Positions 1,363-28,670 of a stretch of 35,205 bases of DNA are shown piece by piece; position 1 is the stretch's first letter; every line of letters starts with the position of its first letter. The position numbers and the translations under genes are program-made. Source of the stretch: a virus (Duplodnaviria; Heunggongvirae; Uroviricota; Caudoviricetes); IMG/VR virus record IMGVR_UViG_2588253749_000005, one strand, 5' to 3'. Under the pieces are notes generated by a model. It saw only the letters and a list, made by a program, of their open reading frames with translations, was not told the DNA's origin and searched no databases.

Positions 1363-1506
1363 TTAATTTCGATTATTTTTCCCGGATGGAAAATTCTTAG
1401 AAACCGATCACATACAGCTGCATTTATTAAGGTTATCATCCGTTTCGCTGAAAAACATAACCCATAAAATGCTAGCTGTACCAGGAACCACCTCCTTAGC
1501 CTGTGT

Positions 1507-1533
1507 AATCTCCCTTACACGGGCTTATTTTTT
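1507..1533. other. P2-type attachment site core (prophage end next to ogr)
   Basis: aatctcccttacacgggcttatttttt is the exact reverse complement of the 27-bp P2 att core AAAAAATAAGCCCGTGTAAGGGAGATT as I recall it; it sits between host yegQ and phage ogr. Confidence 0.7.
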
Positions 1534-7048: not shown

Positions 7049-8239
7049 TTAATTGCTGTTAACCGAGGTGACCAGATTTGCCAGGTATTTATCGGTAATA
7101 CGCTGGCGCAGGGTCAGGTTTTCGAGAGGAGGCACCGGTGTATAGTCGTAGTCGATATACAGTTTTCCGGCCTTGAGGGTTTCCGCATCGTTGGATTCTT
7201 CGCTGAACCAGCAGGTCGCATCCACGATATAGCCGTTTGTTTTCAGCTCACGGAATTTGGCATTGATGCCGTCAACGATGTCGCGAATCAGCGTTGCAGT
7301 GATGGGCTTGTCCACCGCCCACATGTGCGCCTCAGCCATCGTGTCGGCCAGCACCTGCGCGGTGCGGGTGTAGTTTTCAAAGAGGAACAGCGGGTCATCA
7401 GAGCAGGTACGGTTACCCCAGAAGCGGAAACCGTCACGGCGAATCAGCGTTGTGACACCTGACTCGTTCAACAGGTCAGCATCGGTGCCGGACTCCTGCA
7501 AATCCCAGAATACAGAGGCACTGATGCCGGTAACACCGTTTACCCCGACGTTGGACAGCGTTTTATGCCAGCCCTGCTCCTGGTCGATTTTGGCACGCAG
7601 ACCCAGCGCACGGGCGGTGGCATACGCGGTGGCGGTGGTACTGGCGACCGTATCCCATGCGAGGAAATCCGGCCAGATGACCATCAGCTCTCGCTGGCTG
7701 AAATTCTGGCGGTAGGCTTTCACCTCGGAAATGGTTTTACAGCCCCATGCGCTGATATACCCGAAAGCGCGCAGCTTCTGACAGACGGATGCCAGTGCAA
7801 CAGCCACCTCTTTGGTGTCCAGTCCCGGCACGCCGAGAATACGCGGTTTAACACCGGTTACCGACTCTGCCGCCAGCAGGGCTTTCAGTCCGGTATACTG
7901 ACCGTTTTCGTCAGTGGTGCCGATGATATTGGAAACGGTCTGCGCGAGTTTCGTTTCCTCGTCGTCGCCGGTGCCGTCTTCCACGCGCACAACAACAGTC
8001 ACTGGTTTTGACTGGTCGGCGATGGCCTGCAACGATGCCGCCAGCGTGCCTTTTTTACCGGCCTTTGCAATTGCGGTCTGCACATTGGTAATCAGCACAG
8101 GTTTATTGAGGGGGAAGGTTTCCGCATCCGCATCGCTGGCCGTGCAGACCATGCCGACAATGGCCGTGGATACAGTGGAAATGACGCGGGTGCCCTCGTT
8201 AATCTCCAGCACCTGCACGCCGTGATGATAGTCACTCAT
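7049..8239 (-). CDS. FI: Tail sheath protein FI
   Basis: 396 aa, ATG at 8239; recognised as P2 gpFI. Confidence 0.92.
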   Translation of the reverse strand: MSDYHHGVQVLEINEGTRVISTVSTAIVGMVCTASDADAETFPLNKPVLITNVQTAIAKAGKKGTLAASLQAIADQSKPVTVVVRVEDGTGDDEETKLAQTVSNIIGTTDENGQYTGLKALLAAESVTGVKPRILGVPGLDTKEVAVALASVCQKLRAFGYISAWGCKTISEVKAYRQNFSQRELMVIWPDFLAWDTVASTTATAYATARALGLRAKIDQEQGWHKTLSNVGVNGVTGISASVFWDLQESGTDADLLNESGVTTLIRRDGFRFWGNRTCSDDPLFLFENYTRTAQVLADTMAEAHMWAVDKPITATLIRDIVDGINAKFRELKTNGYIVDATCWFSEESNDAETLKAGKLYIDYDYTPVPPLENLTLRQRITDKYLANLVTSVNSN

Positions 8240-8358: not shown

Positions 8359-8724
8359 CGCCTGTCATGATTTGTACTCACTTATTTCCCGACTGACAAT
8401 TTACATAGCCAAAACGCTATCAAATCTGACAGTCTGCTTTGAGCGATCTGCGGACATTACTAACAGCATTCTGTATGAATAACGGGGGGTAGATCATTCC
8501 TGTCCTCACGACGACGCCTATCTATCATACAGTCGTTCTTTGGATCAAGACGCGTTCTGAAATGGTGTTTTTATGTATGTGCTGAATTCTGGGGCATAGA
8601 GTAAACCTTTCAAATTGCCAGAAACAGAAATGTGCGATTTAGTTGTCAAGTAATACCGGATATTTCAGCGATTCATCAAGAAATCATCGACCAGGCTGCT
8701 GTACATTCTCATCGGACGATTTTA

Positions 8725-9591
8725 CTATTCCTCAAGATCGCAGTTACTGCAATGACCTTCCATCCGGAATGCACCACATTCACAAGGCTCCATAGGAACA
8801 AAACCATCCATCTTGCTGTATTCACATTTATACCAGAGACAGACACCGGCCCTTTGTTCCGGTAAATAAATTACGGATGGGACACTACATTCAGGACATT
8901 CCTGAAAATCCCAAGTTTGCAGATTATTCAGGCTGAAACCACAACAGATACAGTGAGTCCGTGCCGGAAAGCTTTCACCTTGGTAAAGGATAAAATGTGA
9001 AAAACTCTCACAAACGGGACAAAGTGCAAGGGTGTATTCCTGGTTAACAGTTATATCAAGGAATTGTTGCTCAAGAGCGATGATGTCTTGACGTAAATCA
9101 GAGTTCCATGAATTTTCGGTCTCATCTGACTGAATTATGACGAATGCGGGACGAAAAATTTGTTGGTACAGTTCACTCAGTTGCATTGACAGTTCTTGCG
9201 GACGAACCTCAAGGGCAAAATGCTGAAGGTTATTACGCAACTGACCCACCGTTTTCATCATTTGTAATGCAGATTCAGAAAATTCGGCTGGGTAATATGT
9301 CTTTAACAGCTTACAAAGCTGGCTGACGTTGACAGATTTACACTGGTGTAATTCTGACTCGGTTGGATGCGCCGGATCCACACATTTTTCTTGAAGCGAT
9401 GCTGGATTAAAAATCGCTCCAGACCCATTGCGCGAAACTACGGCCTTCAATAATAGCTCAGCGGCCTGAAAGAGGTTAAGCAGGCACTGTTTGTAGTCAC
9501 GTCGATCATGCCCTTCTAGCGCTTTGTTAAAGTAGTCCAGCCCGGTTTTCACTGAATCCAACGCATTTTCTAGTAAGTTAAAACGGACCAT
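8725..9591 (-). CDS. Uncharacterised cargo protein: helical N-terminal domain with HEPN-like R-x4-H motif (RNNLQH) plus Cys-rich zinc-ribbon-like C-terminus
   Basis: Track ORF 8725..9666 starts at GTG; preferred start is the ATG at 9591 preceded by a G-rich RBS (about 288 aa); alternative ATG at 9615; C-terminal 100 aa has CPVC, CICC, CPEC, C-x4-C, CEC and CSNC motifs; AT-rich relative to phage genes. Confidence 0.6.
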   Translation of the reverse strand: MVRFNLLENALDSVKTGLDYFNKALEGHDRRDYKQCLLNLFQAAELLLKAVVSRNGSGAIFNPASLQEKCVDPAHPTESELHQCKSVNVSQLCKLLKTYYPAEFSESALQMMKTVGQLRNNLQHFALEVRPQELSMQLSELYQQIFRPAFVIIQSDETENSWNSDLRQDIIALEQQFLDITVNQEYTLALCPVCESFSHFILYQGESFPARTHCICCGFSLNNLQTWDFQECPECSVPSVIYLPEQRAGVCLWYKCEYSKMDGFVPMEPCECGAFRMEGHCSNCDLEE

Positions 9592-9756
9592 ATTAAAGCC
9601 CCCCCGAATAGGCATCGTCGTTATGCCAGCGCTTCCGCCAGTTACACAAATAGTGATTGTACCCACGAATATTGGGAACCTATTTTAGCATGTTTAACTT
9701 TAGTAGTACTGACACAACATTCATGGAGCGGACTGATTGACTTTTGGGGGCGCGTA

Positions 9757-9785
9757 TTTACAAACTCACTACAATGCTGTATAAT
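9757..9785 (+). promoter_or_regulatory. Candidate sigma70 promoter (TTTACA-17 nt-TATAAT) facing the small hydrophobic ORF
   Basis: -35 tttaca at 9757..9762, 17-nt spacer, -10 tataat at 9780..9785; plus strand, opposite to the flanking cargo genes. Confidence 0.45.
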
Positions 9786-9923
9786 TCGTGAAGAGTGAAT
9801 TTAGCTAGTGCATCCATAGGTTCAATTCCTATGACTACAATTCTCATCACAGCTCTCCCAATAGTCGCATTTATCCGTTACCTCAACGTGTTACTTAACA
9901 ATTACGTCAGTAAGGAGAAGCCT

Positions 9924-10106
9924 ATGAGTAAATTATTCTGCCATGAAGTACTATATGTATCTTGTTTCATTGAAACTTTTTGGGCTGGGGTGATAAGTGT
10001 AGTAGCGGGTCTGATGACGGGCGGTGTCCAAATTATTTTGGCACTAGCTAAATCTTCTCAATTTTTGTTTTTTTTCAAAGCACTTACACCCATAAATATT
10101 ATTTAA
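9924..10106 (+). CDS. Small hydrophobic protein (60 aa, predicted membrane-spanning)
   Basis: ATG at 9924 preceded by AAGGAG with a 6-nt spacer; hydrophobic core FWAGVISVVAGLMTGGVQIILALA; same frame is open from 9795 with an alternative ATG at 9831 (91 aa) lacking an RBS. Confidence 0.45.
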   Translation: MSKLFCHEVLYVSCFIETFWAGVISVVAGLMTGGVQIILALAKSSQFLFFFKALTPINII

Positions 10107-10371
10107 ATCAATAAAATAAGTCACTCTACGCATATTTTCCTTATCATGGTCTTTCGTGTTTTTGTACTCAACATGATCGTTTCCCCTTTCTTTAATACAC
10201 AGTGTGATTAGCTACGTCTTCTATTGGAGCGAAGTGGACGGGTTAATTGAGCTGAATGTCAGCTATGAGCGAGGAACGGACTTCAAGAAAGTACCTAACT
10301 GCGTATCGATTGCAAAATATGACAGTCTGACGGTGTTAAGGGCCGTGAGTGCAGCCCTTAAGAAAAAAGTA

Positions 10372-11307
10372 TTAATAATATATCCTGGCTTGCTCGCTCG
10401 TTTCGGTTAAGTTTATTTCATGGTAGTGATTATTTATAAAGTCACAAAAAGTACTAATTTTATCTTTGAGATTACTCATGCTATGCGTGATTTCGTCGTA
10501 TAAATCGCTTTCCTCCTGATTTCGACAGTGGTCACCGGGATTTATAAAACTATAAGTATCATTTGGTGCTGAATAATTATATGGAGCTTTTCTAAACAAG
10601 ATAATTAGATCACGCCAAGCCGTTGCAAAATCAATTGTAACATTCTTTAAAGCTGTATCATTCAGTTGAAAAACAGGTGAGTTTAAAATGTTCAAAATAT
10701 TATCGTATTCTTCAATAATTAATGAATGAATGTATTTTGCGCCCCACTGCAAATGGTCTATTGTTGAATAAAAATCAATATAATTCAACAATCTCGACAA
10801 ATTTGAGATATCTCTCTTGCGCAAAAATTCTTCCCTCGTCGGTTGGTGTCGTTCGAACATTTGCGGGTAGTACATTTTGAGTACAGCTGGGTCTTTGCTT
10901 AAATCAAAGCTAATATCCTCCCAGAAAACCACATCGACAGGAAACAGGCCTTTTAATTGTCTGGCATCATTGAGTGTTCTTACATAGCGCTGAATGCTAA
11001 CATCCCTGGGCGCTGTCGTAGCGATGTAAAGAACCGTAATTTTTGGGCGAAATTTTTCAGCCTTGAGTAATTCATCATCGATTGTCGCCGTACTGATTCC
11101 TGATACTGTATTTTTACACTGAATTCCAACGAAACGCCCAAGAGAGTCATCACCATATACATCAACTCCATCCTGCCGCTGCCCTGACCGTCCATGTCTG
11201 TTCAGATTAGGATTGGACCATCGCAGTTGGAATGAACTTTTGCACATATCCTCAAATTCGTCCCAAGATTTAGGGGGGGGTAACAACATTGAATTATATG
11301 TAACCAC
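10372..11307 (-). CDS. Uncharacterised cargo protein with N-terminal Mrr-type restriction-endonuclease-like (PD-(D/E)xK fold) domain
   Basis: 311-aa ORF; GTG at 11307 with AAAGGA 7 nt upstream, alternative ATG at 11289; N-terminal WDEFEDMC...GRSGQRQDGVDVYG...GRFVGIQCK matches the Mrr-catalytic-domain pattern (D-x-D ... Q-x-K); C-terminal 170 aa unrecognised; strongly AT-rich. Confidence 0.6.
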   Translation of the reverse strand: MVTYNSMLLPPPKSWDEFEDMCKSSFQLRWSNPNLNRHGRSGQRQDGVDVYGDDSLGRFVGIQCKNTVSGISTATIDDELLKAEKFRPKITVLYIATTAPRDVSIQRYVRTLNDARQLKGLFPVDVVFWEDISFDLSKDPAVLKMYYPQMFERHQPTREEFLRKRDISNLSRLLNYIDFYSTIDHLQWGAKYIHSLIIEEYDNILNILNSPVFQLNDTALKNVTIDFATAWRDLIILFRKAPYNYSAPNDTYSFINPGDHCRNQEESDLYDEITHSMSNLKDKISTFCDFINNHYHEINLTETSEQARIYY

Positions 11308-11769
11308 TTACTAATCCTTTATCTAAGATTCTTCATTTTCGTAATCACTATCATAATCATGCTTGATGTGCAATATCTTATTTGCCATGGTTATATGACG
11401 TGAACATAATATATACTGTAAGTATAAGCAGAATTTATTAATGGTGTTCGCCACTCAACGTAATGGTTTCACACTCTAAGGTTCTTTTTTAATAAATCAA
11501 AACATTATGGACAGTGAATCATATCGGAAATGGTTCCTTTTAAATTGAATAACGGCCCATAGTACACAGGTGTATGTGTTAATCGATTTTTCAGACGTTT
11601 TTTTTCGCCTAACATGAGATTTCGTTCGATTGAGCACCAGACCCAATTACCACTATTTAATGATTTAGGTCGAGTAGTAGTAACGTCAGCTCTTGGCACA
11701 TAGCGGACTGTCAGATTAGGCTTTACTCTGTGCTATAGATATGTAAGCTCACACCAGAGATCATACAAC

Positions 11770-12297
11770 TTATTGCGGCATTTCCGGCCATTCGGGATTT
11801 GCAGGATCCACACGACTGACCAGAACGCTGTAGCGTTCCCATGCTTCCAGTCGGCTGCGTTCCTCATCCGTCGCCATATTCAGCCTGACAGCGCGTTCCA
11901 GCGGCAAAATCACGGATTCAGCTTCGGAAAGTAAAGCTGCCTTTTGTGATTCGGCCTGTTGTTGCTGTTCGTCTGCCGTATAAATCCGCTTAATCACGGC
12001 ACCATCCTTAAACATCCATTTACCTGAGTCATCAGCACGTCGGTTGGAGGTAATATCAGGAACCTCGACAACGCTGAAACCTTCAGGGTTAAGCGTTGAA
12101 GCATCTCTGGTGATGCCGACAATTATATTATTCTCGTCGTAAACAATCTTTATCGTGTCTTCCTGAAAATTACTTACTTCCTCATACCAGTTTTTTCCCT
12201 CTTCGGACCATAACCAGATAACATCAAAATTTTTTGTCAGTTGATATTGGGCAACAGTTTTTGGATTACCCGCAGTAATATTTTTTAAATGCTGCAT
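11770..12297 (-). CDS. G: Tail fiber assembly chaperone G
   Basis: 175 aa, ATG at 12297; recognised as P2 gpG-type; directly downstream of H. Confidence 0.85.
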
Positions 12298-16855: not shown

Positions 16856-17641
16856 ATGTTCAGTGATAATGTGATTAATGCGTGGTGGTTTATCTCTTTG
16901 TATCTATTTTTATTAATAGCATTAACATTTGTTACCTTTGGTAAAAGTAATCTTATGAGGTTTATTGCACATCATTTCAATCTTGAGTATTCAGACAGAA
17001 AGTTAAAAATGCTCGACAAAAAATGGCGCGACATTCAACTATTTAAAGTAATTAACGGAATCAATGTATCAGGCATCGAAGATGTGAGAATGATACAGCA
17101 GGGGCTGATTGATGGAAAACTAAAAACATCGTATTTTTTCCTTACTCGCATCTGGGGTGACATAACAAAACCACCACACATAATTAAAACAATAATTGTA
17201 ATTCTGGCCAGTATTTTTTACATTCTCCTCGCATGTTACATACACAACGAACAATCCGTTATAGTAAGGGATGCCATAGGCATACCATATAAAAACATGA
17301 TGTACTATGTTTATAGTGACAAAGTTCTTTTATCCTTCAAAAATAAAGCAGTTGAATTTAATAAAACTTATAGCCTTGCCGATTGCAAGAGACTGCAAAA
17401 CGTATTTATAAAAGACACACTTCCTGAGATCGCCTGCAATAAGCTCTTACAGCTAAACGAGGAGGACTCCGAATGGTTAAGCCAGGAGATTAAAGATAAT
17501 AACAGTCACAAAAAAGCATTATTAATACTATCCCTCGTCTATTTCACTTCAGGTCTGGTTATATTCCTGTCATATACAAAATTCTTTTACGCCAATAAGA
17601 AGGTTTTAGAATACAAAGCATCAAATAAAAATCACTCATAA
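16856..17641 (+). CDS. Uncharacterised three-transmembrane-segment protein in the S-V (P2 orf30) cargo slot
   Basis: 261 aa; ATG at 16856 with GAGGAG RBS 6 nt upstream; hydrophobic segments near the N-terminus, middle and C-terminus; very AT-rich; opposite strand to the surrounding tail genes. Confidence 0.7.
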   Translation: MFSDNVINAWWFISLYLFLLIALTFVTFGKSNLMRFIAHHFNLEYSDRKLKMLDKKWRDIQLFKVINGINVSGIEDVRMIQQGLIDGKLKTSYFFLTRIWGDITKPPHIIKTIIVILASIFYILLACYIHNEQSVIVRDAIGIPYKNMMYYVYSDKVLLSFKNKAVEFNKTYSLADCKRLQNVFIKDTLPEIACNKLLQLNEEDSEWLSQEIKDNNSHKKALLILSLVYFTSGLVIFLSYTKFFYANKKVLEYKASNKNHS

Positions 17642-27075: not shown

Positions 27076-27281
27076 CGCCCGCTTCATGGGGCGGTTTTAA
27101 TGCAGTTGCATGACCACTCAACTAGCGCGCCAGTCCTGATGTCGCCAGGCAGTTATTGTTCTCTGACTTGCGTGCGCTTCGATGCAGAGTAATGCACTTC
27201 CTGAATTGCTCGCATTCGCATCGTTATCATGATAGAAAACAGGTAGTTATTTGTGCGCAACTTAAGAAGAAATCACTAATT

Positions 27282-28670
27282 ATGAAAAAGATTTATGAAT
27301 TAACTACTGGTAGAGCGCTTAAGTATTTTCTGCAGCATGATTCATACACTACTCTGGAGCTACCCAGTTATGTCGATTTTTCTTCCTTGCTTGAAGAAAT
27401 CAACTCCGCGATAGATGAAGGTAAAATCAACTTCCAACCTGACTCCAAGTCATTGATGGGGAAGAATATAAATTACGAGGTTTTAGTCAGCAAAGATGGC
27501 TTATATAGCTGGCGACGAATAACACTAATTAATCCTCTGTACTACGTGTATTTTTGTAAACTTATTACATCCTCTTCCAACTGGAATGCTATAAGGAATA
27601 AATTTAGAGAGTTTGAGTCTAATGATCTTTTTTTATGCTCAAGTATCCCAGTGAGCAAAAAGAACACCTCAAACGTAGCTGCATCTGTTTTAAACTGGTG
27701 GGAAGATTTTGAACAAAAAAGTCTTTCATTGGCTCTTGAGTATGAGTTCATGTTCAGCACAGATATTTCAAACTTCTACCCTTCTATTTACACTCATAGC
27801 TTTGAATGGGTATTCATCTCAAAAGAAGAGGCCAAAAAGAAAGAAAATAACAATAACCCAGGACGATTGATTGACACTCATATCCAGATGATGATGAGTA
27901 ATCAGACAAACGGAATACCATTGGGTAGTACGTTGATGGATACATTTGCCGAATTAATTTTAGGCGAAATTGATTTACAGCTAAGAAAAAAAACCGAAGA
28001 GCAAAAAATAACGGATTACAAAGTAGTTCGCTACAGAGATGATTATCGAATATTTTCAAGCAGTAAAGATGATTTGGACAAAATCTCAAAGTGTTTGGTT
28101 GAGGTCTTAGGTGAGTTTGGGCTTGATTTAAACTCAAGAAAAACAGAACTACATGACGACATCATTCTTCACTCCCTTAAATCAGCAAAAAAAGAATATA
28201 TTATAGAAGGGTCGTTCAACTCCCTACAGAAAATGTTGTATGCAATATATTTATTTTCTTTAAAACATCAAAACTCCAAAATTACAGTCAGATATTTAAA
28301 TGATTTCTTGCGGAAATTATTTAGGAAGAAAAAGATCACAAATAGTGGGCATCAACTAGATGCAATGCTTGGAATTATTTCAAGCATCATGGCTAAAAAC
28401 CCAACCACCTACCCAGTGGGAATGGCTATTTTCGCAAAACTCTTGACCTTCCTTTATGACGACGATGAACTCAAATTTGGCAAGTTACAACAACTTCATT
28501 GTAAACTAGGTAAACAACCAAATACTGAAATGTTAGATATTTGGTTTCAACGAGTTCAAGGGAAGATACACACACAATGGGAAGGCGATTACAAAACAGC
28601 CCTATGTCAACGCATAAATGATGAACTCAAGGAAAAAAAACATTTACCATTGATGGCCTGTGGGATGTAG
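27282..28670 (+). CDS. Reverse transcriptase, Abi-P2-like defence-associated type, in the tin/old slot
   Basis: 462 aa from the ATG at 27282; RT motifs STDISNFYPSIY, NGIPLGSTLMD and VVRYRDDYRIF (YxDD); very AT-rich; sits between cos and A where P2 carries tin/old; the track ORF starts 42 codons upstream at a non-ATG codon. Confidence 0.8.
   Translation: MKKIYELTTGRALKYFLQHDSYTTLELPSYVDFSSLLEEINSAIDEGKINFQPDSKSLMGKNINYEVLVSKDGLYSWRRITLINPLYYVYFCKLITSSSNWNAIRNKFREFESNDLFLCSSIPVSKKNTSNVAASVLNWWEDFEQKSLSLALEYEFMFSTDISNFYPSIYTHSFEWVFISKEEAKKKENNNNPGRLIDTHIQMMMSNQTNGIPLGSTLMDTFAELILGEIDLQLRKKTEEQKITDYKVVRYRDDYRIFSSSKDDLDKISKCLVEVLGEFGLDLNSRKTELHDDIILHSLKSAKKEYIIEGSFNSLQKMLYAIYLFSLKHQNSKITVRYLNDFLRKLFRKKKITNSGHQLDAMLGIISSIMAKNPTTYPVGMAIFAKLLTFLYDDDELKFGKLQQLHCKLGKQPNTEMLDIWFQRVQGKIHTQWEGDYKTALCQRINDELKEKKHLPLMACGM

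Follow-up and report, generated by a model that had tools for sequence, protein, structure and literature searches.

The window, by which we mean the whole stretch of 35,205 nucleotides analysed here (IMG/VR record IMGVR_UViG_2588253749_000005), contains a P2-like E. coli prophage with a minus-strand cargo gene in its Z/fun slot. What does this gene encode, and does its product act alone? Taking two points jointly, we consider it probable that the product is a stand-alone immune effector, in which an HEPN RNase of the DUF3644/EC042_2821 type is followed by three C-terminal Cys4 zinc ribbons (the ZnR module), and that it represents a divergent Enterobacterales branch of the PDC-S64/HEC-08 superfamily. 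The slot itself is delimited by the following elements.

8423..8462, no strand assigned: left arm of the inverted repeat bounding the Z/fun slot; 40 nt, 78% complementary to 11678..11717
11678..11717, no strand assigned: right arm of the same inverted repeat, from a repeat search; compare AJ512683
8343..8363, minus strand: terminator-like hairpin followed by a T-run, from a consensus scan (9-bp stem, 6 GC pairs; a consensus match only)

In the record of the P2-EC58 Z region (AJ512683), the corresponding features carry the annotation 'left/right inverted repeat'. GC content sets the cargo slot (about 40%) apart from the tail sheath and tail tube genes (about 57%), and known P2-like phages match only the flanks of the cassette, 6% of its length. 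The arrangement is that of P2 fun(Z): the same slot, reaching from the tail fibre assembly gene to the tail sheath gene, with inverted repeats on either side and lysogenic-conversion or defence cargo inside. The window gene, however, is unrelated to fun(Z) in sequence. Defence genes are known from the tail-gene hotspots of P2 (PMC13586616). The hairpin lies 3' of the cargo and 5' of the tail sheath gene, and, judging from its sequence, likely forms the 3' end of the cargo transcripts.

The gene and its start signals are placed as follows.

8725..9591, minus strand: coding sequence of the HEPN and triple zinc-ribbon protein, 288 aa; stop codon at 8725..8727, start ATG at 9591
9599..9605, minus strand: G-run GGGGGGG, probable Shine-Dalgarno sequence 7 nt before ATG 9591, from the sequence and alignments with loci L002 and L020
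9682..9690, minus strand: putative promoter-like element of the extended -10 type, TGCTAAAAT, 5' of the HEPN gene, read from the sequence

A longer open reading frame, 8725..9666 on the minus strand, is present in the ORF list, and the sequence-only reading had left the start open between GTG 9666, ATG 9615 and ATG 9591. Of these, ATG 9591 stands and the other two fall. All homologues begin with M-V/I-x-F, aligning at ATG 9591, which is also the RefSeq/PGAP start call: the PGAP record WP_042815569.1 has the same coordinates as the 288-residue gene. In addition, phrog_20819 matches the window protein over its full length (E=5e-208). The G-run varies between copies, with seven or six nucleotides, and is one nucleotide shorter in E. 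coli CP66-6 and Mixta theicola, so that ATG 9615 and GTG 9666 are out of frame there and no upstream in-frame start is left in either copy. This frame argument rules out both upstream codons. The start at ATG 9591 thus follows from the homologue N-termini, the PGAP call, the G-run seven nucleotides upstream and the frame shift in two near-identical copies.

The extended -10 element that had been pointed out upstream of the gene is indeed there. Both E. coli CP66-6 and Mixta theicola, where the module also occurs, have conserved it, although in Mixta the 5' region around it has diverged to 87% identity. A consensus promoter scan did not report the element, whose -35 region is poor. Rfam searches of the cassette and of the whole window returned no RNA element tied to the HEPN gene, their sole match being CyaR, outside the prophage; ARAGORN called no tRNA, although a T-arm-like fragment is present upstream.

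The protein divides into two halves, with the putative catalytic motif in the first.

9049..9591, minus strand: N-terminal all-alpha region, residues 1-181, with the HEPN domain at about residues 1-155 and a connecting helix
9220..9237, minus strand: R119-N-N-L-Q-H124, R-x4-H signature of HEPN RNases, read from the sequence
8728..9036, minus strand: three predicted Cys4 zinc ribbons, residues 186-288, net charge -10

A helical N-terminus carrying RNNLQH had been expected from the sequence, and both parts of this expectation hold. AlphaFold places helices at residues 6-181 and beta-hairpins at residues 186-277, and in the predicted structure the helices form the compact all-alpha bundle of the HEPN fold. 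RNNLQH spans residues 119-124 of the 288-aa form and is the sole R-x4-6-H of the protein; it corresponds to the motif that catalytically active HEPN families conserve and that often begins with RN. One such match in a protein of this size is about what chance would give, as estimated from typical R and H frequencies. What gives the motif weight is that it lies inside the predicted HEPN fold and is kept by every one of 19 close and 38 distant homologues: R119, N120, Q123, H124 and F125 never vary among the close ones, and the distant ones all retain R119 and H124, with N120 at least 90% conserved.

Matches to DUF3644, to the HEPN regions of Csm6/Csx1 and to PADLOC PDC-S64 agree in direction; the PADLOC CARF_HEPN profile aligns to residues 103-145. 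On the other side, Pfam HEPN matches at E=0.041, and Pfam DUF3644 (PF12358) scores 16.4 bits (E=0.007), under its gathering cut-off of 27.6 bits, so that the protein does not qualify as a member of this Pfam family. A PDB sequence search with the single protein gave no match at E<=10, and Foldseek retrieved no viral structure from BFVD at E<=0.001. Altogether, the profile matches, the invariant R119 and H124 and the predicted fold support the HEPN reading, and we take the protein to be a predicted HEPN RNase of the DUF3644/EC042_2821 type. By analogy with the H128A substitution in HEC-08 and R146A/H154A in RAZR, its RNase activity, which in this superfamily is metal-independent, would depend on the motif.

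All six cysteine pairs that had been counted in the C-terminal 100 residues were found: CPVC (residues 191/194), CICC (214/216/217), CPEC (232/235), C-x4-C (251/256), CEC (270/272) and CSNC (281/284), the last 106 residues holding 13 cysteines. Conservation in the family is beyond chance, with ten cysteines invariant and two more at least 90% conserved; the ten are kept even in the 38 relatives whose identity to the query is about 20-30%. The twelve conserved cysteines make up three CxxC...CxxC-type units, in line with the zinc-ribbon reading and the proposed number of about three sites. The ligand sets would be C191/C194 with C214/C217, C232/C235 with C251/C256, and C270/C272 with C281/C284. 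Zinc-ribbon profiles of Rpb9/RpoM/RPA12, eS27, L37Ae and TFIIB match the window protein, and its relatives match Pfam DZR/Zn_Ribbon. The module is acidic in all members, with a median net charge of -13. Across the broad family its pairwise identity is 0.17, against 0.35 for the less variable HEPN domain; in the close clade the two are equally conserved, and here the module is unlike the hypervariable Zn-finger domain of RAZR.

The sequence-only reading had not recognised the fusion. It is in fact an established one: HEPN(DUF3644/EC042_2821)+ZnR fusions were catalogued in 2013 (PMC3710099) and are already represented in PADLOC as PDC-S64 and HEC-08, one member having been validated experimentally (bioRxiv 10.1101/2024.01.29.577857). 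The window protein has the corresponding layout, an N-terminal HEPN domain and then several C-terminal Cys4 zinc-ribbon units within about 300 residues. A profile search collected 1,729 cluster representatives, many of 290-330 aa and matching over both domains; the cluster members of distant relatives bear no informative names. As judged by sequence, the protein is part of a large superfamily of DUF3644-type HEPN and zinc-ribbon fusions that includes PDC-S64 and HEC-08. It matches PADLOC PDC-S64 at E=2.4e-21, mainly over residues 1-141 (profile positions 1-131 of 339), and HEC-08 weakly, at E=5.9e-6, over residues 14-285. Intermediate relatives connect to both profiles with full-length alignments at E values of 1e-16 to 1e-30. 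When PADLOC profiles were run against 38 relatives, PDC-S64 matched all 38, HEC-08 35 and DUF3644 34, several of these matches being full length; Pfam DUF3644 matches 14 of the 38 at E<=0.01. The gene is therefore real and probably defensive, but probably no new kind of system. In the literature library searched, neither the protein accessions nor PDC-S64 is mentioned.

Among known systems, HEC-08, the Hma-embedded candidate 08 (Payne et al., bioRxiv 10.1101/2024.01.29.577857), is the closest that has been validated. This single gene confers phage protection on E. coli, and defence is lost when the histidine of its Rx4-6H motif is replaced (H128A; bioRxiv 10.1101/2024.01.29.577857). Like the window protein, it is one polypeptide of about 300-360 aa, occurs in defence contexts, and combines an N-terminal DUF3644-type HEPN with an R-x4-6-H (H128 there, H124 here) and several C-terminal zinc-ribbon-like units that have no overall structural match in the PDB. 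The weakness of the direct match places the window protein in a separate, divergent clade. This clade differs in a 7-residue HEPN insertion with two conserved cysteines, C70 and C84, and in its third ribbon, which has a CxC knuckle instead of CxxC; moreover, the window gene sits in a P2 prophage slot and not within an Hma system. PDC-S64, likewise a single-gene candidate, is the best-scoring defence profile, although it is a computational candidate and its match to the window protein covers essentially the HEPN half. The EC042_2821 HEPN family is catalytically competent and overlaps Pfam DUF3644 (Anantharaman et al. 2013, PMC3710099); it is found fused to ZnR domains and associated with restriction-modification (R-M) and defence operons (PMC3710099). 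The wHTH and REase fusions also listed in 2013 (PMC3710099) are absent from the window protein.

For the way in which such fusions work, RAZR/PD-T7-4 is the best-understood model. This Zn-finger and HEPN protein is non-toxic alone (Zhang et al., Nature 2026, PMC13017515). Its Zn-finger domain sets the specificity and binds phage ring proteins; the protein, harmless until assembled, is thereby activated and cleaves ssRNA non-specifically (PMC13017515). As in our case, a single small protein encoded on accessory DNA of E. coli joins a Cys4 zinc-ribbon-type domain to an HEPN RNase. In RAZR, however, the order is reversed, with the Zn-finger N-terminal and the HEPN C-terminal, the HEPN is of the DUF4145 instead of the DUF3644 type, and there is one zinc-finger domain against three ribbons here. 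Neither PD-T7-4 nor DUF4145 matched the window protein in PADLOC or Pfam at E<=1, which places it outside the RAZR family: RAZR is an analogue, not a family member.

Homologues of the window protein occur in defence islands. Their neighbours include OLD-like ATPases, a retron-type RT accompanied by integrase remnants, RES, UvrD, Cas1, an MmeI R-M system, a KAP NTPase, toxin-antitoxin modules and a nucleotidyltransferase with an S-4TM effector. These contexts, together with the homology to HEC-08 and its need for the motif histidine, fit the earlier suggestion of an abortive-infection or defence function.

Does the effector need a partner? Near distant homologues the neighbours vary, and no neighbour is conserved there or in the window; no obligatory partner gene is apparent. 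Two candidates were rejected, the second of them as an obligatory partner. In Mixta and in 15 of the 28 E. coli genomes, the HEPN module lacks the 311-aa neighbour (10372..11307), and the homology of the module ends at about 10283, short of this gene. A 521-aa OLD/HEC-04-like ATPase accompanies only a subclade of 62-68% identity and is absent from the window, Yersinia, L019, Raoultella and the distant loci. A third gene, divergent from the cargo, does travel with it.

9924..10106, plus strand: small hydrophobic ORF of 60 aa, divergent, with an AAGGAG Shine-Dalgarno sequence; PGAP CDS WP_021530427.1
9757..9785, upstream of the small ORF: promoter-like site TTTACA-17-TATAAT, 11/12 consensus matches

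Three unrelated contexts (the window, L002 and L020) have the small ORF together with the HEPN gene. Conservation is unusually high over codons 1-48, where identity to Mixta reaches 96.5%, compared with 85-92% for the flanks. A link to the HEPN system is possible. RNA folding of its 5' region was no better than that of shuffled sequences (z = -0.68).

A related-locus search with the alignment of close homologues returned only 10 loci. The first alternative sees the HEPN protein as the toxin, or the effector, of a two-gene module, in whose ancestral form an upstream protein of 333-363 aa with an RHH-like N-terminus regulates, neutralises or triggers it. The window copy would then have lost its partner and be an orphan of reduced or no function, or have been rewired to the 60-aa ORF. 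In relatives at 55-77% identity, the RHH-like gene is translationally coupled to the HEPN gene: its stop lies 1-2 nt before the HEPN start on a Klebsiella IncF plasmid (L012), in Yersinia (L017/L018), in an Enterobacter MAG (L021), in Superficieibacter (L022) and in Dickeya oryzae (L023), and at L019, where the HEPN protein is 77% identical to that of the window, the partner is present 85 nt upstream. Its N-terminus, MLSQLTLRF.KKLIEALK, resembles ribbon-helix-helix antitoxins, and Pfam DUF6364 matches it weakly. Because of this coupling, the solo form in the window might lack a component. At some loci, however, the partner has decayed, with an internal stop at L013, a frameshift at L011 and a 3' remnant in Dickeya (L003/L004), and the HEPN-ZnR ORF is intact throughout; the RHH-like protein is therefore not an indispensable antitoxin. 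It is absent in the window, in Serratia, in Raoultella and in all contexts of distant homologues, and HEC-08 acts as a single gene. As for the small ORF in the partner's role, it has no homologue beside more distant HEPN-ZnR genes, a 2-bp indel alters its C-terminus, and its substitutions are mostly non-synonymous (four against one synonymous relative to Mixta). We consider a two-gene module unlikely. An HEPN-MNT toxin-antitoxin pair (type II/VII) can be dismissed: no MNT gene occurs in the cassette or beside homologues, and the protein, at 288 aa against about 130 aa for the HEPN toxin of such modules, has an extra domain. With 5yep and 7ae2 it shares only the fold, at 13-17% identity.

The target could also differ, the protein acting mainly against conjugative plasmids as an incompatibility or anti-conjugation HEPN that would destabilise replicons on arrival, for instance by cutting a replication primer RNA. 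The precedent is Ishtar (ist1/ist2; XZW63086.1, MGQ1310977.1), anti-conjugation proteins of Acinetobacter baumannii that cause loss of the plasmid RP4 (bioRxiv 10.64898/2026.07.06.735840). In these proteins the HEPN domain (DUF4145 or DUF3644) comes first and a beta-rich domain, whose function is unknown, forms the C-terminus; their genes have been found in integrons, in P4 satellites and close to other defence genes (bioRxiv 10.64898/2026.07.06.735840). Compared by description only, Ishtar shares with the window protein its monogenic nature, N-terminal HEPN and beta-rich C-terminus; its phenotype is plasmid loss, not phage defence. Homologues about 67% identical to the window protein are carried by 266 plasmids, 253 of them predicted conjugative, which fits competition between plasmids. 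Against this, the Ishtar paper mentions neither zinc nor cysteines, the closest validated homologue, HEC-08, is anti-phage, and the window copy resides in a prophage, where anti-phage cargo is the norm. Plasmids as the main target thus seem to us quite improbable, although anti-plasmid and anti-phage roles can coexist. We give very little credence to a non-catalytic HEPN that serves as a ligand-binding domain or scaffold, as in the C-terminal domains of kanamycin nucleotidyltransferase or in sacsin, which would make the protein a zinc-ribbon regulator or a lysogenic-conversion factor that cleaves no RNA. Inactive HEPN families typically have no R-x4-6-H (PMC3710099), whereas in this family R and H stay unchanged even between deeply diverged members, and defence by HEC-08 needs the motif histidine. 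An acidic ZnR module is ill suited to DNA binding, and the automatic protein names rest on the zinc-ribbon pattern only.

For the stand-alone immune effector, we now propose the following mechanism. The HEPN gene, carried in the P2 Z/fun slot, would be transcribed from its own promoter in the lysogen, and the product is most likely an auto-inhibited RNase, analogous to RAZR, that is inactive in the uninfected cell and switched on when the ZnR module senses an invader. When a foreign phage, or possibly a plasmid, enters the cell, the acidic module would bind a component of the invader, most likely a protein. The HEPN domains would then be rearranged within the oligomer, bringing R119 and H124 of neighbouring subunits together in a competent composite active site; RNA would be cleaved, translation would halt and the invader would not be propagated, through abortive infection or growth arrest. 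We infer the RNase activity, the trigger, the oligomerisation and the outcome for the cell. More speculative, and in our view doubtful, is that the compact, strongly acidic triple ZnR is an undescribed invader-sensing module, which would recognise a phage or plasmid protein, or serve as a pseudo-substrate that mimics nucleic acid and is displaced by such a protein, and whose switch would be unlike the ring templating of RAZR, and that in the lineage of the window the RHH-like partner has given way to the co-travelling small membrane protein in a two-component variant.

These observations place an unannotated immune gene, probably a functional one, in the second cargo slot of P2-like prophages (Z/fun, among the tail genes) and connect a large family, whose members nearly always bear the label 'hypothetical', with one validated defence, HEC-08. 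For the question of how stand-alone HEPN RNases are silenced and triggered, handles are offered by the acidic ZnR array, by an RHH-like partner that is optional and by the small ORF that travels along. If the clade is confirmed as defensive, defence-finding profiles would need extending, since the Pfam score lies under the DUF3644 threshold, PDC-S64 covers mainly the HEPN half and the HEC-08 match is weak.

A tblastn search of 50,697 phage records found no homologue, which indicates that carriage by phages is rare and confined to prophages. The gene was found in 28 of 5,426 complete E. coli genomes, several of them enterotoxigenic, such as B7A. In the prophage of the window, the other hotspot is occupied by AbiP2.

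The HEPN-ZnR protein of the prophage is a divergent branch of an already catalogued fusion. Its N-terminal half is, by structure prediction, a HEPN domain: an AlphaFold2 model built from a 19-sequence alignment is confident (pLDDT 87.3, pTM 0.83), with helices over residues 6-181, as the sequence-only reading had predicted for the N-terminus, and β-hairpins over residues 186-277. Checked for a HEPN fold, the model resembles HEPN structures, with fold-level matches to AF0298, the Shewanella HEPN toxin SO_3166, YutE, the HEPN toxins 7ae2 and 8xdj, sacsin HEPN, the HEPN domain of AbiA and Csm6. Profile matches point the same way, if weakly: those to Pfam are DUF3644 (16.4 bits with a cut-off of 27.6) and HEPN (E=0.041). 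Those to PADLOC comprise the computational candidate PDC-S64 (E=2.4e-21), PDC-S19, HEC-08, Csm6 and CARF-HEPN, one CARF-HEPN profile aligning exactly over residues 103-145.

The motif RNNLQH is present at residues 119-124 (nt 9220..9237). Since chance alone would give roughly one R-x4-6-H in a protein of such length, the motif's meaning comes from its conservation and structural setting and not from its presence alone. In the close clade R119, N120, Q123, H124 and F125 are invariant; in 38 relatives at ~20-30% identity R119 and H124 are still invariant, as are N9, K34 and K49.

The six Cys pairs noticed earlier all lie within residues 191-284. Ten cysteines are invariant and two more are conserved at ≥90%; judging from their spacing and the predicted hairpins, they probably group into three Cys4 sites, in line with the earlier estimate of about three zinc sites. 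The family profile matches the tandem zinc ribbons of the RNA polymerase subunits Rpb9/RpoM/RPA12 (E ~1e-3), as well as ribosomal eS27, L37Ae and TFIIB, and relatives match Pfam DZR, Zn_Ribbon_TF and related models. The module is strongly acidic, with a net charge of -10 in the window protein (median -13, range -19 to -3, n=38 members), which argues against general nucleic-acid binding and suggests protein recognition or a pseudo-substrate role. Across the broad family, with shared Cys excluded, its pairwise identity is 0.17 versus 0.35 for HEPN, a variability that would fit a specificity module; this argument is tempered by the equal conservation of the two domains inside the close clade.

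Whereas a word-indexed search returned 37 clusters only, mostly of Enterobacterales with Aeromonas as well, the family grew under an exhaustive profile search to 1,729 cluster representatives (E≤1e-3; 507 at E≤1e-10). Many of these are 290-330 aa long and match over both domains. All of 38 diverse members matched PDC-S64, 35 matched HEC-08 and 34 DUF3644, several at full length. Nearly all family members are named 'hypothetical protein', and a check for an unrelated function found no competing annotation in the family.

The fusion had not been recognised from sequence, yet it is already catalogued and one homologue is validated. The EC042_2821 HEPN family, found in R-M operons, overlaps DUF3644 and has ZnR among its fusion domains (Anantharaman et al. 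2013, PMC3710099). As a single gene, HEC-08 gives E. coli protection from phages, which is lost on replacing the histidine of its Rx4-6H motif (H128A; Payne et al. 2024 preprint, bioRxiv 10.1101/2024.01.29.577857). RAZR/PD-T7-4, a zinc-finger and HEPN (DUF4145) protein, is harmless alone; its zinc-finger domain sets specificity by binding phage ring-forming proteins, and once triggered it forms a 24-mer, which cuts ssRNA without specificity (Zhang et al., Nature 2026, PMC13017515). Its domain order is opposite, its HEPN subfamily is different and the HEPN-ZnR protein has no RAZR/PD-T7-4 profile match in Pfam or PADLOC; RAZR is therefore an analogue, not a relative. The Ishtar proteins of A. 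baumannii, which eliminate plasmid RP4, combine a DUF4145/DUF3644 HEPN with a β-rich C-terminal domain (bioRxiv 10.64898/2026.07.06.735840); their likeness to the HEPN-ZnR family is drawn from the description of the domains.

Predicted fold, motif, ligands, homology and context, all obtained computationally, support the earlier proposal of a HEPN RNase with zinc ribbons that is probably defensive. From there we infer catalysis, trigger, oligomerisation and an abortive outcome, and consider the following scheme the best supported and, taken as a whole, rather likely: the RNase would be kept auto-inhibited as a stand-alone protein, the zinc-ribbon module would sense an invader component, and sensing would trigger an R119/H124-dependent cleavage of RNA that halts translation. 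The clade is unannotated and poorly detected by current profiles, and its members sit in the less-studied Z/fun slot of P2 and on many conjugative plasmids; its value lies also in the activation mechanism, a question for the whole family.

The start codon is settled. All sequence features noted earlier are there, including the extended -10 element TGCTAAAAT at 9682..9690. Of the candidates GTG 9666, ATG 9615 and ATG 9591 the last is the start: 19 homologues open with M-V/I-x-F at ATG 9591, and PGAP places the start at the same codon. A homopolymeric G-run (9599..9605, minus strand) lies 7 nt upstream of this ATG, between the Shine-Dalgarno region and the start codon. The run is 7 nt long in the window; in E. 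coli CP66-6 (99.3% protein identity) it has 6 nt, and in Mixta theicola (97%) it is one base shorter and interrupted. This puts ATG 9615 and GTG 9666 out of frame in both copies, which have no in-frame start upstream of ATG 9591. It is the G-run that lets the longer ORF 8725..9666 look open, and it does so in the window alone. The run length could affect translation efficiency.

The window represents a P2-like prophage of E. coli. The gene is flanked there by the tail sheath gene (7049..8239) on one side and the tail fibre assembly gene (11770..12297) on the other, in the Z/fun variable slot of P2-like phages, whose three cargo genes are all 'hypothetical proteins' in RefSeq.

Features of the cargo slot and prophage
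8423..8462 and 11678..11717, 40-nt inverted repeat bracketing the cassette
8725..9591, minus, HEPN-ZnR protein, 288 aa
9757..9785, plus, near-consensus promoter-like site TTTACA-17-TATAAT
9924..10106, plus, small hydrophobic ORF, 60 aa
10372..11307, minus, 311-aa protein, second cargo gene of the slot
27156..28670, plus, AbiP2-type abortive-infection reverse transcriptase (PADLOC AbiP2, E=2e-152)

The P2-EC58 Z-region record carries annotations of equivalent repeats. GC content falls from ~57% in the tail sheath and tube genes to ~40% in the cassette, whose 3,451 nt are 100% identical to strain B7A; sequenced P2-like phages match its flanks only (6% of the cassette). P2 tail-gene hotspots are known defence loci (PMC13586616). 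AbiP2 of the same prophage sits in the main P2 defence hotspot, Q-A (portal gene Q/replication gene A), so the prophage carries at least two, probably three, defence genes.

The 311-aa gene forms a module of its own, apart from the HEPN gene, and is a second candidate for defence. Its product, with no match in Pfam or PADLOC, shows a PD-(D/E)xK-like D...QxK pattern at the N-terminus; the family (171 clusters) is widespread as a single gene with varying C-terminal halves, and some relatives carry the UniRef name 'Restriction endonuclease type IV Mrr domain-containing protein'.

The HEPN-ZnR gene occurs in 28 of 5,426 complete E. coli genomes, 13 with the whole three-gene cassette and 15 with only the module 8433..10283. 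In CP66-6, one of these 15, the module adjoins an RNA-directed DNA polymerase gene, integrase remnants and IS3; homology to the Mixta theicola copy spans 8706 to ~10280. What moves is therefore the HEPN gene together with ~690 nt upstream, including the small ORF. In PLSDB, homologues of ~67% identity are found on 266 plasmids, 253 predicted conjugative, from Escherichia, Salmonella, Klebsiella, Edwardsiella and Serratia (for example NZ_CP026163.1 50514-51377; CP088679.1 25815-26678); the two that were analysed closely belong to IncFIB/IncFII. The protein may thus have a role in competition between plasmids or of plasmids with phages. Homologue neighbours are typical of defence islands: OLD/HEC-04-like ATPases, RES, UvrD, Cas1, SymE, VapBC, CcdAB, MmeI-type R-M, a KAP NTPase and a nucleotidyltransferase with S-4TM effector.

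Throughout the 65-68% identity subclade, a convergent 521-523-aa OLD-family/HEC-04-like ABC ATPase lies ~50 nt downstream of the HEPN-ZnR gene, often accompanied by a 312-328-aa RelB-like protein; the ATPase is also nearby in Serratia. This gene order suggests a defence block that travels together.

In relatives at 55-77% identity, the HEPN-ZnR gene is preceded by one for a 333-363-aa protein whose N-terminus is RHH-like (MLSQLTLRF.KKLIEALK...). The stop codon of this upstream gene precedes the HEPN start by 1-2 nt in L012, L017/L018, L021, L022 and L023, and by 85 nt in L019.

Neighbouring genes at homologue loci (L numbers)
OLD/HEC-04-like ATPase: L003:6935-8500, L011:6919-8490, L012:6927-8492, L013:6927-8492, L005:3137-4702; also L021-L023
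RHH-like partner: L012:4911-5999, L017:4907-5998, L019:4915-5916, L021:1267-2352, L022/L023:3911-4996

The partner is decayed in L013 (internal stop), L011 (frameshift) and Dickeya dianthicola (L003/L004, 3' remnant), where the HEPN-ZnR ORF is nonetheless intact; the window, Serratia, Raoultella and all distant loci lack it. This rules the partner out as an indispensable antitoxin; it may be a regulator or accessory sensor.

The small ORF, divergent from the HEPN gene and preceded by a strong AAGGAG Shine-Dalgarno, accompanies it in three unrelated contexts (P2 slot, E. coli island, Mixta theicola). Its codons 1-48 share 96.5% identity with Mixta, versus 85-92% in flanking non-coding DNA; the changes, however, are 4 non-synonymous versus 1 synonymous, and a 2-bp indel alters the C-terminus in other copies.

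Within the module's conserved upstream region, ATAGG-TTCAATT-CCTAT (9816..9832, plus) resembles the T-arm of a tRNA: a 5-bp stem closes a 7-nt loop, TTCAATT. ARAGORN finds no tRNA there; the fragment could be left over from a tRNA-borne attachment site of an earlier integrative host element. A 261-aa ORF (16856..17641, plus), without PADLOC match, lies on the opposite strand amid minus-strand baseplate and tail genes; it may represent a further moron slot. The host-prophage junction is marked by the CyaR/RyeE sRNA gene (1445..1530, plus; 100.7 bits against Rfam), which lies just beyond the end of the prophage.
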